A stretch of 64,000 nt of DNA, taken from contig LYOS01000002.1 in NCBI GenBank assembly GCA_001766815.1, positions 39,777-103,776 on the forward strand. The letters are read 5' to 3'. Positions 35,672-42,679 of the stretch are shown piece after piece. Positions within the stretch are counted from its first letter, which is position 1; every line of letters begins with the position of its first letter. The notes below the pieces were generated by a model. The model did not search any database, was not told the origin of the DNA, and was given only the letters and a program-made list of their open reading frames with translations. The position numbers and the translations under genes are program-made. This DNA is from Candidatus Syntropharchaeum caldarium. GTDB lineage: Archaea > Halobacteriota > Syntropharchaeia > Syntropharchaeales > Syntropharchaeaceae.

Positions 35672-36136
35672 TTATATCCTCGCAGGTCCTGCATCTGCAA
35701 ACCCCTGCCGTTGACCTGTCCCCGCCTCTTTCTCAAGGGCCTTTGGGTTGAAAAGCAGTTTCAGGACGTTTCTGGCGTGCTCCCGTGTTCTTGCATCCGC
35801 AAGCTTCACAAGTTCTTTATCATCCGCAGCCTCGTCTTCATGTACAAACACCTCAATTATGTGCTTATTTGTCAGAAGCTGCGCATGGATTATCCCAAGT
35901 GATGCCTCGTGCGCACACTGCTTGTCAATCTCCTCAGGTCCTGGCATACCAAGCGCGATCACGATATCACACCCCATCTCCTCGATCAATTTCTTGGAAG
36001 CGACAGGGAGGTCCTTCACACCGGGCACTGTGTAGCGTTCAATTCTGACAGATGCGCCTCGCTTAAGCTCCTCGATCGCAGCCTTTCCCATATCATACCG
36101 TGCAAATGCAGTATCTGCAACACCAACCTTTGCCAT
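35672..36136 (-). CDS. ribC: archaeal-type riboflavin synthase
   Basis: 154 aa. [10 protein letters not shown]...[10 protein letters not shown]...[19 protein letters not shown]...[12 protein letters not shown]...[13 protein letters not shown] is collinear with methanogen riboflavin synthase. Confidence 0.85.
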
Positions 36137-36166
36137 CAGATAAAAGACGCTCCTTCTGATTTAAAA

Positions 36167-37075
36167 CTATACTGTCTCAGATGAGAAATAGATCGTATCA
36201 CCTGTTTTCAGATCATTGAGAAGTTCACGGTTTTCTGTCACTGTGCCCACGATGTTACTTGCTTTGAAGTTCTCGCCTGTTGGCCCATATTTTTCACTTG
36301 GTTTGAGTCGTATGCCTATCGTCCCCGCACCTTCTTTTGCCATATTTGTCACACCAATTGTAAAGCTCTCCATCACATCAGGGGTATTCTCTGGCATTAT
36401 ACTCCGCTTATATCCTGCTCGTTCATCGAAGAGAACGAACGCACGGTATTTCTTCTTGACGCTCAGTTTTCCAACACCAGCCCTCATAAAGGTTGCATAT
36501 CTGAAGTAGTGAAGTGTCTGGTCTATATTTTCACATAGTTTTATCCTGAGGATCTTATCTGATGATATGCCGTATGTCCTGACCTCTCCTGTTTTAAGAA
36601 TGGATATCGTATAGACTGGGTTCTGTTCTACAATGATTGCGTCGTCCTCGATCGCGCCCTCCCGGATTTGATGGATTCCACGCGCACTGAGCATCCTGTA
36701 TGCCTCCTCCTGTTGCATTCCGATCGCCATTATTCGTGGTGGTTCAACAGAAAGCATAACCTCATCGGATGCCTTCAGCCCTTCCAGAACCTCTGTATTC
36801 TCCAGTATGCCCACAACATCGTGCGATCTTGAGGGTAAAACATTGCGTCGATAGATGTAAACATTACCAATGCCATTTCCCGTGTTTCTCACTGTTACAG
36901 TGTTACTTGAACGAAAACCTGTGGGATCGTCACCATTTCCATAGAAATCAGCCGACCCCACGATCTTTACGTACGTATCGTTAATCTCTTCTACCTTCAA
37001 AGTTCGATCTGCTACGACGTAGATATAGTCGCTTGCCTCATTCTCACTGATGACCTTCAATCGTATTTCTTTCAT
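36167..37075 (-). CDS. conserved hypothetical protein in the A2-like ATPase operon (possible methanogenesis-marker-type protein)
   Basis: 302 aa, soluble. 4-nt overlap with the upstream gene. No motif I can assign confidently. Confidence 0.45.
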   Translation of the reverse strand: MKEIRLKVISENEASDYIYVVADRTLKVEEINDTYVKIVGSADFYGNGDDPTGFRSSNTVTVRNTGNGIGNVYIYRRNVLPSRSHDVVGILENTEVLEGLKASDEVMLSVEPPRIMAIGMQQEEAYRMLSARGIHQIREGAIEDDAIIVEQNPVYTISILKTGEVRTYGISSDKILRIKLCENIDQTLHYFRYATFMRAGVGKLSVKKKYRAFVLFDERAGYKRSIMPENTPDVMESFTIGVTNMAKEGAGTIGIRLKPSEKYGPTGENFKASNIVGTVTENRELLNDLKTGDTIYFSSETV

Positions 37076-40018: not shown

Positions 40019-40879
40019 TTATACAGATGGAACACTCAGCGGAAGTTCAATGATTATATCGTCCTGTGTGCCCCTCTTTATGCTGCCAAACTCACCGAGT
40101 TTACCAAAGTAAAATTCCATCTCTCCGAGTTTCTCTGCATATTCATCATAGGATGCGTTCACTCTGAGACCGCTCATTTTGAGTACCACGTTCACACCAA
40201 ACTTTGATTCAATCTCGGTTTTTATATAGGGATAGGTTGCAGGAACATCAGGTCGAAGGCTTCCGATGATCGAGATTACACTCTCCATAAATGCACCTAT
40301 TATCCGTTTATCATCAGGATCATCGAACATCGTTGGTATCCTTGTAATAGACGGGATGAAAATCAGCTCATCATCAGACTCAAGATCTGCATAGCCTGTC
40401 ACGATCACAGGTACATTAAGCCTTCTGCAGAGTTCCATCTTCTCACGGATACAGTGCTCAAAACATCCAAACATGAAGATCGCCAGATCGTGCTCCTCGA
40501 TCATCATCCGCTCTTCCCTCATCAGAATCGCCTTTCTGCCAACGCCTCTTGCAGGTGCGATTGTGTTCACCTTTGCGCCAGCCTGCCGCAGTGTCTCAAC
40601 CGTGCTGCAGTGTGGAAAGGGTGTGTGATGAAGATTAAATGAGGGGATGATCACCGCAACTTCGATACCATAGAGCGGTACAGTGATAACCCTTCCTGAA
40701 TGCTTACGGAGAGCTGCCCGTTTACGCAGAATGTTCACCGATTCATGATCTATCATCACATCAAATTCTGCAACACCACCCATCTGGTCTATGTTCAGGA
40801 CAAAACCGCCAAGATCCTCTATGAACTCAATTATTTCGTCTGATTCAAACGCATTTCCGATATATTTTAGCGGCATCAT
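40019..40879 (-). CDS. conserved hypothetical protein in the A2-like ATPase operon (Mmp7-sized, unverified)
   Basis: 286 aa, soluble, directly downstream of the second tandem-ABC ATPase. Confidence 0.45.
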   Translation of the reverse strand: MMPLKYIGNAFESDEIIEFIEDLGGFVLNIDQMGGVAEFDVMIDHESVNILRKRAALRKHSGRVITVPLYGIEVAVIIPSFNLHHTPFPHCSTVETLRQAGAKVNTIAPARGVGRKAILMREERMMIEEHDLAIFMFGCFEHCIREKMELCRRLNVPVIVTGYADLESDDELIFIPSITRIPTMFDDPDDKRIIGAFMESVISIIGSLRPDVPATYPYIKTEIESKFGVNVVLKMSGLRVNASYDEYAEKLGEMEFYFGKLGEFGSIKRGTQDDIIIELPLSVPSV

Positions 40880-40897
40880 TTTTATTCCACGCCGTAT

Positions 40898-42679
40898 TCA
40901 GCTCAGATGGAAATACCTGTATGCATCTCCCGTATCCTCAATCTCACCGCCTTTTGAGACAAAGTCGGCGTACTTTCGATTGACAAATTCATTACAGATA
41001 GTCTCAGGATCGCCTGTCATCAGAATTTCGCCACGGTGTATCAGCAGTGCCCGGTGTGCAAGCTCCTTCACCGCATCCAGTTGATGGCTCACGAGGATTA
41101 TTGTGAGGTTGTGCTCCTTGTTGAGGGTTTTTATTGCATTTATACATTTACGCAGCGAGATAGGATCGAGATCTCCGAAAGGCTCATCGAGCAAGAGGAC
41201 CTCTGGCTTCTCCGTCATGTGAAGAGCAAGCGCAACCCGTATCTGCTCACCTGCACTGAGTTCATATGTATAGTGATCCATGAGAGAAAGAGGAAGATCG
41301 AGCGCTTCAAATATGGGTTTCATCCGCTTTTTAGCTTCGTCTGCAGGTATCGTTGGGAATAACTTCCTCAGAATCCCTGGATCAAGTTTCAGCTCCCTGA
41401 GCATGTCTTTCATCTCATCTTCTGGCAGATCTGCAAGTCTATAAAGTACATCCAGCTTCACGTCACTTAGTCCCATTTCTCTCGCCCGTTCGACCACCTC
41501 AGGCAGGAATCGCACGTCCTTTAGCCCAAGTTTCTGCTCAAAGAGGTGCAGCACGATTTCATAGTGCGTGAGCGCAAACTCCTGATGTAACGTTGAGATG
41601 TTAAGACGCGCCTTTACAGCATCATAACCATAGGTACAGATATTTGTCCAGCGCTCTTCACCACCATCGTTGATCCTGTAGGTAACCTCACCAAACTGAG
41701 GAGGTTCAAGTCCTGCAAGCAACCTGATCAGTACTGTCTTTCCAGCAGCACATGGTCCAACGAGTGCAAGTATCTCGCCTTCGTAGATATCGAAGTTGAG
41801 ATTTTTCATCTGGATCGTCTCGATAAACTTTGCACCTGATGTGGTTATCTGGTAACGCTTCCAGAGGTTGGTGAGGCGCATCTTCGGCACTTCTCGTGGT
41901 ATCGATGGCTCAACGGGTTGATCGATCTTTGCAACAAACTTTTTAATGATCTCATCTGGTTTCCCCTCATCAACCACCTTTCCTTCCTCAATCCAGAGCA
42001 CCCTATCAGCGAGAGTTTCGTGTATTTCTGGCATATGAGAGACAAATACAACAGTAACACCAGCATTCTCATTTATTTTTTTTATCGCATCAAGCATCAT
42101 CCCTCGACCAACAGGATCTATCATGGTGGCTGGTTCATCTACAAGAAGAACACGTGGATTTGCTGCGAGCTGTCTCGCAAGCAGAACACACTGCTTCTCA
42201 CCGCCGCTGAGGATATTGTAGTAGTAATACTTCTTATCCAACATGCCAACAATATCAAGAATCTCGGAGGCCCGTTTGAAGAGTCGTTTATAGTCGTTTG
42301 AACCTGTTGTAGGTATCTCTTCAAAACCTGTCTCAAGCTTTCCCAGTTTTCGCATCACATTATTTATCACACTCTCAGGCCATAGTGCAAACGAACGTTG
42401 CAGATGCAGTGCGGTTATCTTCTGGAGTTCAAGCTGTTCATTGGAATTAGAGTCAGGTGTGAGTGTGATACCATCAACCCTTACAGATCCTTCTTTAAAT
42501 GATTCCACGCCCCTTAAAATTCGCAAGAGTGTGGTTTTTCCTGCACTGCTCCTTCCTAATATACCCAGAACTTCACCCTCATCGACTGAGAACGAGACGT
42601 TCTCAAGAGCAGTGTGTTCTTTCTCAATCTTTGAGATCTGATAAGTCTTCGTTAAATTTTCTACTTCGATGATCTTCAT
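40898..42679 (-). CDS. soluble tandem-ABC ATPase, divergent paralogue of the A2-like protein (no zinc ribbon)
   Basis: GRSSAGKTT/LSGGEKQCV/LLVDEPATMID and GPCAAGKTVL/LSAGEQIRV/LLLDEPFGDLD. No Fe-S N-domain, so not ABCE1. No TM domain. Confidence 0.65.
   Translation of the reverse strand: MKIIEVENLTKTYQISKIEKEHTALENVSFSVDEGEVLGILGRSSAGKTTLLRILRGVESFKEGSVRVDGITLTPDSNSNEQLELQKITALHLQRSFALWPESVINNVMRKLGKLETGFEEIPTTGSNDYKRLFKRASEILDIVGMLDKKYYYYNILSGGEKQCVLLARQLAANPRVLLVDEPATMIDPVGRGMMLDAIKKINENAGVTVVFVSHMPEIHETLADRVLWIEEGKVVDEGKPDEIIKKFVAKIDQPVEPSIPREVPKMRLTNLWKRYQITTSGAKFIETIQMKNLNFDIYEGEILALVGPCAAGKTVLIRLLAGLEPPQFGEVTYRINDGGEERWTNICTYGYDAVKARLNISTLHQEFALTHYEIVLHLFEQKLGLKDVRFLPEVVERAREMGLSDVKLDVLYRLADLPEDEMKDMLRELKLDPGILRKLFPTIPADEAKKRMKPIFEALDLPLSLMDHYTYELSAGEQIRVALALHMTEKPEVLLLDEPFGDLDPISLRKCINAIKTLNKEHNLTIILVSHQLDAVKELAHRALLIHRGEILMTGDPETICNEFVNRKYADFVSKGGEIEDTGDAYRYFHLS

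Follow-up and report, generated by a model that had tools for sequence, protein, structure and literature searches.

A seven-gene operon of Candidatus Syntrophoarchaeum caldarius that very probably encodes the reductive activation machinery of its alkyl-coenzyme M reductases

Within a 64-kb stretch of the genome of the archaeon Candidatus Syntrophoarchaeum caldarius (contig LYOS01000002.1; the whole of this stretch is referred to below as the window) we found, at positions 35672-42679 of the minus strand, an operon whose products very probably serve as the machinery of reductive activation for this organism's alkyl-coenzyme M reductases (ACRs). All six polypeptide types of the activation complex that was solved by cryo-EM for Methanococcus maripaludis methyl-coenzyme M reductase (MCR) are encoded in it consecutively. 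The operon represents a known MCR/ACR activation system that has been compacted and rearranged, having a single fusion, a shortened subunit and an additional ATPase; what is new in it is that McrC is fused to DUF2098, that Mmp3 is truncated and that a second ATPase shares the operon.

The mechanism by which the nickel cofactor of MCRs and ACRs is switched on had not been resolved before the 2025 methanogen structure, for which a complex composed of Mcr(ABG)2, A2, Mmp3, Mmp7, McrC, Mmp17 and DUF2098 was purified and solved (PDB 8S7V/8S7X/9H1L; Ramirez-Amador et al., Nature 2025, PMC12176620), and our reading of the operon as encoding a complete activation complex rests on this structure. The same authors name alkane-oxidising archaea as the systems to study next (PMC12176620). 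Two archaea oxidise butane in the culture Butane50, and Ca. S. caldarius is one of them; the culture is reported to form butyl-coenzyme M (butyl-CoM), and Ca. S. caldarius to carry four divergent mcrBGA-like operons (PMC9081873, PMC9118554). An earlier annotation of the window, here called the original prediction, had foreseen a methanotrophic or alkanotrophic host, and an oxidiser of butane is indeed what the host turned out to be.

Gene content and layout of the operon

The window list of open reading frames (ORFs) gives seven co-directional, tightly packed ORFs on the minus strand of the block 35672-42679, exactly where the original prediction had placed seven genes. Preceded by a putative promoter, and given in gene order, they are as follows (aa, amino acid residues).

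42731..42740, minus strand: TATA-box-like CTTATATATG, putative archaeal promoter, read from the sequence
40898..42679, minus strand: soluble tandem ATP-binding cassette (ABC) ATPase of 593 aa, MA_3967-like (TIGR03269 below cut-off, PDB, alignment)
40019..40879, minus strand: Mmp7, McrC-like iron-sulfur-cluster subunit, 286 aa (TIGR03274, Pfam MCR_C, PDB)
39225..40004, minus strand: McrC (residues 1-~192) fused to a DUF2098 domain (~207-258), 259 aa (TIGR03264, Pfam DUF2098, PDB)
37621..39189, minus strand: component A2 (AtwA), 522 aa from ATG (TIGR03269, PDB 8s7v_K)
37072..37617, minus strand: Mmp17 (DUF2113), 181 aa (TIGR03291, Pfam DUF2113)
36167..37075, minus strand: short Mmp3, 302 aa (TIGR03268, PDB 8s7v_J)
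35672..36136, minus strand: archaeal riboflavin synthase RibC, 154 aa, last gene (TIGR01506)

All seven proteins match GenBank OFV67985-OFV67991 of Ca. S. caldarius with full identity, and since 2016 the database names of the genes have been right in part. Four of the products had been described as conserved hypothetical proteins of 286, 259, 181 and 302 aa; the sizes are correct, but the proteins are not hypothetical, being Mmp7, McrC::DUF2098, Mmp17 and Mmp3, respectively. The search which had been proposed as a check, with TIGR03269 and the methanogenesis-marker models, placed A2 over its cut-off and matched these four proteins to the Mmp7, McrC, Mmp17 and Mmp3 families. Furthermore, McrC, Mmp7, Mmp3 and A2 of the operon align to the corresponding chains of the solved activation complex.

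Judged by its sequence the 522-aa ATPase is a bona fide component A2. It matches TIGR03269 with an E value of 9.9e-168 (559 bits versus the NCBIfam cut-off of 517), and PDB 8s7v_K (6.7e-122) across residues 8-517, with the zinc motif aligned. It has two nucleotide-binding domains (NBDs), the Walker A, signature, Walker B and H-loop motifs being complete in both cassettes, and an N-terminal zinc-binding motif, CENC...CPRC. This motif sets A2 apart from related ABC ATPases and is necessary for maximal A2 ATPase activity (bioRxiv 10.64898/2026.03.18.712670). A CxxC...CxxC element had been noted in cassette 1 of the ATPase then placed at 37621–39207; it is present, and in this protein only, while the start has been corrected. 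The two options are a TTG at 39207 (528 aa) and an ATG at 39189 (522 aa), of which the latter is the likely start because 522 aa is the length given both by GenBank and by the gene callers, and because that Met is where the alignment with the solved A2 sets in. No Syntrophoarchaeum entry was found in the supplement text of the published A2 tree (Adler & Nayak).

As predicted, the A2 and 593-aa proteins are two soluble ATPases with two full ABC cassettes each and no permease (motif scan and ORF list). One might have taken them for the energising subunits of an energy-coupling factor (ECF)/CbiO-type or other ABC transporter, with the small proteins unrelated to them. ECF_ATPase, PhnC and similar models do score 200-250 bits with both, as is expected of any ABC cassette. 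The ECF models (249-252 bits) lie under their cut-off of 330 and under A2, which for either ATPase ranks first among the models and among the solved structures; no EcfT/EcfS or other permease gene occurs in or beside the operon, and the neighbours are Mmp7, McrC, Mmp17 and Mmp3. We give this explanation practically no chance, the family scans (A2 best for both, no permease gene) having ruled out a transporter ATPase. Generic ECF/CbiO cassettes accompanied by no marker hits, one of the outcomes which the original prediction had named as its refutation, were looked for and did not occur.

The putative cluster-bearing subunits are Mmp7 and McrC. Mmp7 matches Pfam MCR_C (5.8e-50), TIGR03274 (1.9e-55; 188 bits, under the cut-off of 349) and PDB 8s7v_H (9e-31), and the McrC part of the fusion matches TIGR03264 (3e-53; 180 bits, under the cut-off of 213.5) and PDB 8s7v_I (6e-45). 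The ligands of three [8Fe-9S-C]-type clusters in M. maripaludis have been named as McrC C12/H49/C55/H118 and Mmp7 H84/C90/C143: FeS-I is bound by McrC H49/H118, FeS-II by McrC C12/C55 and FeS-III by Mmp7 H84/C143, with C90 nearby (PMC12176620). Counted through the alignments these are C11/H48/C54/H115 and H85/C91/C143 in the present proteins, all seven positions being conserved, and the ligand residues are invariant in the nine McrC and four Mmp7 homologues which were aligned.

McrC is continued, in the same polypeptide, by DUF2098. The Pfam DUF2098 match covers residues 207-258 of the 259-aa protein (1.5e-8), and the best PDB sequence match of the 64-residue tail is the DUF2098 chain 8s7x_L/8s7v_L, although this match is weak (0.11). 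An AlphaFold2 model of the whole protein, from a 4-sequence alignment, is of low confidence (pLDDT 49.5); with this low-confidence model Foldseek returned 8s7v_I (McrC, 7e-10) and 8s7v_L (DUF2098, target-normalised TM score of 0.84, rmsd of 1.1 A, 46 columns). The model was used for these two activation-complex chain matches only, and no intramolecular docking was read from it. We consider the fusion established because the Pfam match, the best PDB match of the tail and the Foldseek matches to 8s7v_I and 8s7v_L concur; within it DUF2098 presumably binds to McrC. In the literature searched, DUF2098 is mentioned together with McrC in the structure paper only (PMC12176620).

A word-indexed homologue search, which is insensitive for small proteins, gave 3 matches for McrC::DUF2098. 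An exhaustive representative search returned 53 McrC-family clusters, only three of which (P0003, P0148 and P0149; 260-265 aa) also match across the DUF2098 tail. The named bearers are Ca. Ethanoperedens GB37/GB50 (CAD7769455.1) and a 'Methanospirareceae' metagenome-assembled genome (MAG; GCA_054798995.1), whose fusions have the same architecture (259-266 aa) and conserved ligands. A metagenome search with the fusion alignment gave four Ethanoperedens-like contigs only; there (L016) the fused mcrC stands alone, unlike in the Syntrophoarchaeum operon. In GCA_054798995.1, Mmp7 and two zinc-motif-bearing A2 paralogues come after the fusion, where the present operon has one A2, Mmp17 and Mmp3. The order on this contig (L009, 5837-10899) is McrC::DUF2098 - Mmp7 - tandem A2 paralogues of 557 and 534 aa; the latter two are 40% identical to one another, and at 510 and 432 bits both fall under the TIGR03269 cut-off. 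With a zinc-motif-less homologue elsewhere (L004), this one genome holds three A2-like ATPases. A profile search of genome contigs with the Mmp7 alignment returned two GoM-Arc1 loci; among the contigs covered, neither it nor a search with the fusion alignment gave a Syntrophoarchaeum locus.

Mmp17 scores 113 bits with TIGR03291 (cut-off 67) and matches Pfam DUF2113 (8e-39). Its stop codon is overlapped by 4 nt by the start of mmp3, the product of which is the C-terminal half of the canonical ~500-aa Mmp3: it exceeds the TIGR03268 cut-off (249 versus 234 bits) through profile positions 218-501 of 503 only, and matches PDB 8s7v_J (5.5e-52) at chain residues 214-495. The N-terminal half was not found anywhere in the 64-kb window by tblastn. 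The domain kept is the one contacting McrA, and the mobile domain of Mmp3 is the N-terminal one (PMC12176620). Among 15 matches from the word-indexed search a short Mmp3 was seen elsewhere in one 82% relative only; the other 13 matches include 11 proteins of 500-519 aa and two of 417 and 168 aa, the latter annotated as partial. This rarity of the short form is provisional because the search is insensitive.

RibC, with 233.5 bits against a TIGR01506 equivalog cut-off of 100.55, confirms the riboflavin synthase which had been predicted at the 3' end. The 30-nt gap before its gene contains GAAGGAG ahead of the ATG, and TTTTTT follows ~25 nt past the stop. The gene is presumably co-transcribed with the block, and its product may have some role in activation.

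The intergenic gaps are, in gene order, 18, 14, 35, 3, -4 and 30 nt. The GC content of the first six genes is 0.445-0.471, and both it and GC3 (GC at third codon positions) are uniform over these genes; that of ribC is slightly higher, 0.514. No minus-strand terminator-like site or hairpin was seen inside the seven-gene block in the terminator part of a promoter/terminator scan. Only this absence was used, the sigma-70 promoter predictions of the scan being disregarded since that model is not applicable to archaea. The seven genes have the layout of one operon and are probably carried on one transcript, because the gaps range from -4 to 35 nt, the block has no internal minus-strand terminator and the GC content is uniform. 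The TATA-box-like CTTATATATG lies ~61 nt 5' of the first ATG of the operon, within a 191-nt intergenic region shared with a divergent cytochrome gene, and may function as the promoter. A GGAGGT Shine-Dalgarno sequence stands 7-12 nt before this ATG, which is that of the 593-aa ATPase gene. A horizontally acquired island is ruled out by the uniform GC and GC3 over six genes.

Proposed activation mechanism and known systems

By homology with M. maripaludis, the products of the operon would form a complex with the ACRs, carry clusters of the same type and support an ATP-dependent activation. McrC and Mmp7, together with Mmp17, would house three L-cluster-like [8Fe-9S-C] centres in a chain, along which low-potential electrons would travel to F430 and reduce its Ni(II) to Ni(I). 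A2 would clamp the reductase jointly with Mmp3's C-terminal domain, and A2, in binding and hydrolysing ATP, would cause a conformational change opening the active site. DUF2098, which in M. maripaludis is a separate small subunit gripped by a McrC loop, is here joined covalently to McrC, and the flexible N-terminal domain of Mmp3 would be dispensed with. The 593-aa ATPase, whose gene is presumably co-transcribed, would most likely serve as an accessory or alternative ATPase in the same process, which is the least certain step of the scheme.

The operon shares its subunit set with the M. maripaludis complex, and the McrC/Mmp7 cluster ligands as well as the two NBDs and the zinc motif of A2 are common to both. 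Sequence matches to the M. maripaludis chains range from 6.7e-122 (A2) to 9e-31 (Mmp7), DUF2098 being recognised by Pfam and fold. The M. maripaludis genes are dispersed, with mcrC in mcrBDCGA, whereas those of Syntrophoarchaeum form a single operon in which DUF2098 is fused, Mmp3 is shortened, and an extra zinc-motif-less ATPase and ribC are included. The presumed client also differs, being an alkyl-CoM reductase (four paralogues) here and MCR in M. maripaludis.

The second system to be compared is the 'MCR activation operon' of Methanosarcina acetivorans, in which A2 (MA_3998) is found with Mmp5, Mmp6, Mmp17, Mmp7, Mmp3 and Mmp15 and the genes are co-transcribed (bioRxiv 10.64898/2026.03.18.712670). 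Both organisms have A2, Mmp7, Mmp17 and Mmp3 clustered, and both have a zinc-motif-less A2 homologue in the genome. In the Syntrophoarchaeum operon McrC::DUF2098 replaces Mmp5, Mmp6 and Mmp15, and the zinc-motif-less homologue is inside the operon, whereas MA_3967 of M. acetivorans lies ~30 locus tags from A2. The present operon contains exactly the subunits of the structure, plus the 593-aa ATPase and ribC, and no Mmp5, Mmp6 or Mmp15.

Several observations weigh against the assignment of this operon to ACR activation. No gene for the alpha, beta or gamma subunit of the reductase (mcrABG/acrABG) was found in the 64-kb window; the original prediction that no mcr genes lie nearby is right as to mcrABG, but mcrC is inside the operon. 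Mmp7 and McrC are, from their scores under the NCBIfam equivalog cut-offs, divergent. Mmp3 is without the N-terminal ~210 residues and, in our reading of the alignment, has K/K at the residues aligned to M. maripaludis Y404/F405, which contact the N-terminal helix of McrA. A second, canonical set may exist elsewhere in the genome, and a non-fused McrC of 227 aa occurs in another Syntrophoarchaeum sp. (P0218). Finally, the orthologue of the 593-aa ATPase lies outside activation genes in all seven of the other loci examined, and in the four GoM-Arc1-type loci (4/4) the zinc-motif-less homologue is directly followed by mtnA (S-methyl-5-thioribose-1-phosphate isomerase, 573 bits). As regards the K/K pair, the McrC loop which wedges against McrA (V72-K95 in M. 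maripaludis) is also altered here, being 2 residues shorter and divergent, and the two changes would fit a client with a different N-terminus.

The block had originally been taken for a duplicated activation module, that is, for two ATPase + MCR_C-like units which arose by tandem duplication and could be spare or repurposed beside a canonical set. The order ATPase / MCR_C-family / MCR_C-family / ATPase is symmetric, with both pairs paralogous; the sub-threshold scores of Mmp7 and McrC could point to a divergent second copy, and the non-fused McrC of the other Syntrophoarchaeum sp. agrees with such a view. However, identity is 28% between the two ATPases and 33%, over 48 residues, between Mmp7 and McrC, the operon proteins are much closer to orthologues in other orders than to their neighbours, and the 593-aa protein belongs to a separate orthologous family. 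McrC and Mmp7 are each required once in the solved complex (PMC12176620), and Mmp17, Mmp3 and DUF2098 are present once each in the block. The duplicated module was accordingly not borne out and is now a long shot, and a recent tandem duplication is ruled out by the low identity within both paralogue pairs. The sequences argue that the block is one module composed of ancient paralogue pairs, with mcrC inside.

Read as activation machinery for ACRs, the operon reveals how this machinery would be built in a butane oxidiser: the electron-transfer core is the same, with every cluster ligand intact, and Mmp3 is reduced to its reductase-touching domain. The McrC fusion gives independent genomic support for DUF2098 as a true subunit. 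As a single 7-kb block the operon offers a defined gene set for co-expression toward active alkyl-CoM reductases in a heterologous host, and it provides a concrete lead on the function of the conserved MA_3967-like ATPase family.

The 593-aa ATPase

The two ATPases had been described as A2-like paralogues. The 522-aa protein passes TIGR03269 (559 versus 517 bits); for the 593-aa protein TIGR03269 is likewise the best model, but it is matched in three stretches with 291 bits, under the cut-off of 517. Its closest solved chain is A2, 8s7v_K (1.6e-58). There is no CxxC in the whole protein. Walker A, Walker B and the H-loop are intact in both cassettes and the signature of NBD2 is LSAGE; by these motifs both nucleotide sites look competent. 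The absence of a zinc ribbon and the presence of GPCAAGKT had both been correctly noted; the latter is not atypical, for it fits GxxxxGK[ST] and is unusual in its residues only.

Orthologues of 565-603 aa, with 44-63% identity, occur in ANME-1 (ANME, anaerobic methanotrophic archaea), GoM-Arc1/Ethanoperedens, Argoarchaeum and Methanobacterium. In the alignment of this MA_3967-like family the ~27-residue zinc ribbon is missing, an insert of ~12 residues is present in NBD1, and NBD2 has a strongly conserved insert of ~57 residues (...LDVLYRLADLPE.EAK...LFP...); the 593-aa protein shares the length class, the lack of the zinc ribbon and both inserts. The family is the outgroup in the A2 phylogeny (bioRxiv 10.64898/2026.03.18.712670). 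To judge from the sequences, the 593-aa ATPase did not arise by a recent duplication of A2; it is a member of a separate, widespread family of A2 homologues without the zinc motif. Among the matches listed, at least 120 homologues bear an organism name, and all of these are methanogens, ANME or alkanotrophs.

There is a considerable possibility, somewhat short of an even chance, that the 593-aa ATPase is unrelated to activation and serves another conserved process in MCR/ACR archaea, its place in the operon being a lineage-specific accident; the six activation genes would stand nonetheless. The orthologue is found away from mcrC, mmp7 and A2 in the ANME-1-like, Methanophagales, Methanobacteriaceae and four GoM-Arc1-type loci: it follows a B12-radical-SAM gene in the ANME-1-like MAG, lies among flavin- and oxygen-stress genes in Methanobacteriaceae, and in the GoM-Arc1-type loci directly precedes mtnA. 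The protein is also without the zinc motif needed for maximal A2 ATPase activity, and no function has been assigned to its family in the literature searched. Other evidence ties the ATPase to activation. It is separated from mmp7 by 18 nt, with no terminator between them and the same GC, and a 92%-identical relative (L015) has the two genes side by side as well. A2 is by far its nearest characterised relative, and the named homologues are, as said, confined to methanogens, ANME and alkanotrophs. Furthermore, mmp10, mmp7 and mmp17 lie 3-5 kb from the zinc-motif-less ATPase in Ethanoperedens, and mmp5/6/15-like genes are near it in L007. Among the loci examined only S. caldarius and L015 place the ATPase directly before mmp7, for which reason we regard the operonic link as real here and lineage-specific.

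That the Syntrophoarchaeum machinery for activating alkyl-CoM reductase has a genuine second ATPase in the zinc-motif-less homologue is a tentative and rather doubtful proposal. Such an ATPase might engage ACR paralogues out of the reach of A2, or replace the lost functions of the Mmp3 N-terminus. If the proposal is true, the operon would amount to a portable cassette which is complete in itself and suffices for ACR activation, and the widespread MA_3967-like family would have its first functional assignment.

The pairs of zinc-motif-less homologue and mtnA, which belong to GoM-Arc1/Ethanoperedens/Argoarchaeum genomes (two of the four are from named ethane oxidisers) and are joined by a 2-nt gap or a 4-nt overlap, are located as follows.

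L005, 10001-12774: homologue-mtnA pair
L006, 8001-10768: homologue-mtnA pair
L007, 134-2907: homologue-mtnA pair
L008, 8001-10750: homologue-mtnA pair

In L008 (Ca. Ethanoperedens GB37), at 3141-5872, a Mmp17-Mmp7 pair abuts Mmp10 ~3-5 kb upstream of the ATPase. This Mmp10 is the MCR arginine methyltransferase (484 bits), and an integrase gene lies between the Mmp set and the ATPase.

Neighbouring genes in the window

On either side of the operon lies a small multihaem cytochrome, one of 231 aa with 5 CxxCH motifs (42871-43566, plus strand) and one of 244 aa with 3 (34647-35381, minus strand); the two are paralogues with 49% identity, and their signal/anchor N-termini are nearly identical. The 231-aa cytochrome adjoins the ATPase also in the relatives L002 and L015. 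The region had been described as dominated by respiratory cytochromes; this is true of the immediate flanks only, the rest of the window being housekeeping. Beyond the 231-aa cytochrome, at 43580-50482 on the plus strand, is the gene for a cytochrome of 2300 aa with 17 CxxCH motifs, four Golvesin_C domains, TSP3 repeats and an F5/8-type-C domain, followed on the minus strand by those for a protein with cohesin and lamin-tail domains (50504-51814) and a dockerin-domain protein (51826-52797). From their domains the 2300-aa cytochrome and the cohesin and dockerin proteins look like an extracellular assembly for electron transfer and scaffolding.

The minus strand, which is also that of ribC, carries three genes downstream of it (32321-33394) a homologue of the MtaA/CmuA-family methylcobamide:CoM methyltransferases, which at 205 versus 244 bits is under the cut-off; the host must process butyl-CoM. 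Further features of the window are a 420-aa radical-SAM protein with weak glycyl-radical-activase-like matches, followed by CitG (1807-3911, plus strand), an aldehyde:ferredoxin oxidoreductase with a 4Fe-4S partner (14407-16769, minus strand), and an HMG-CoA reductase of the NAD-dependent 'degradative' class (25695-26951, minus strand; 493 bits).

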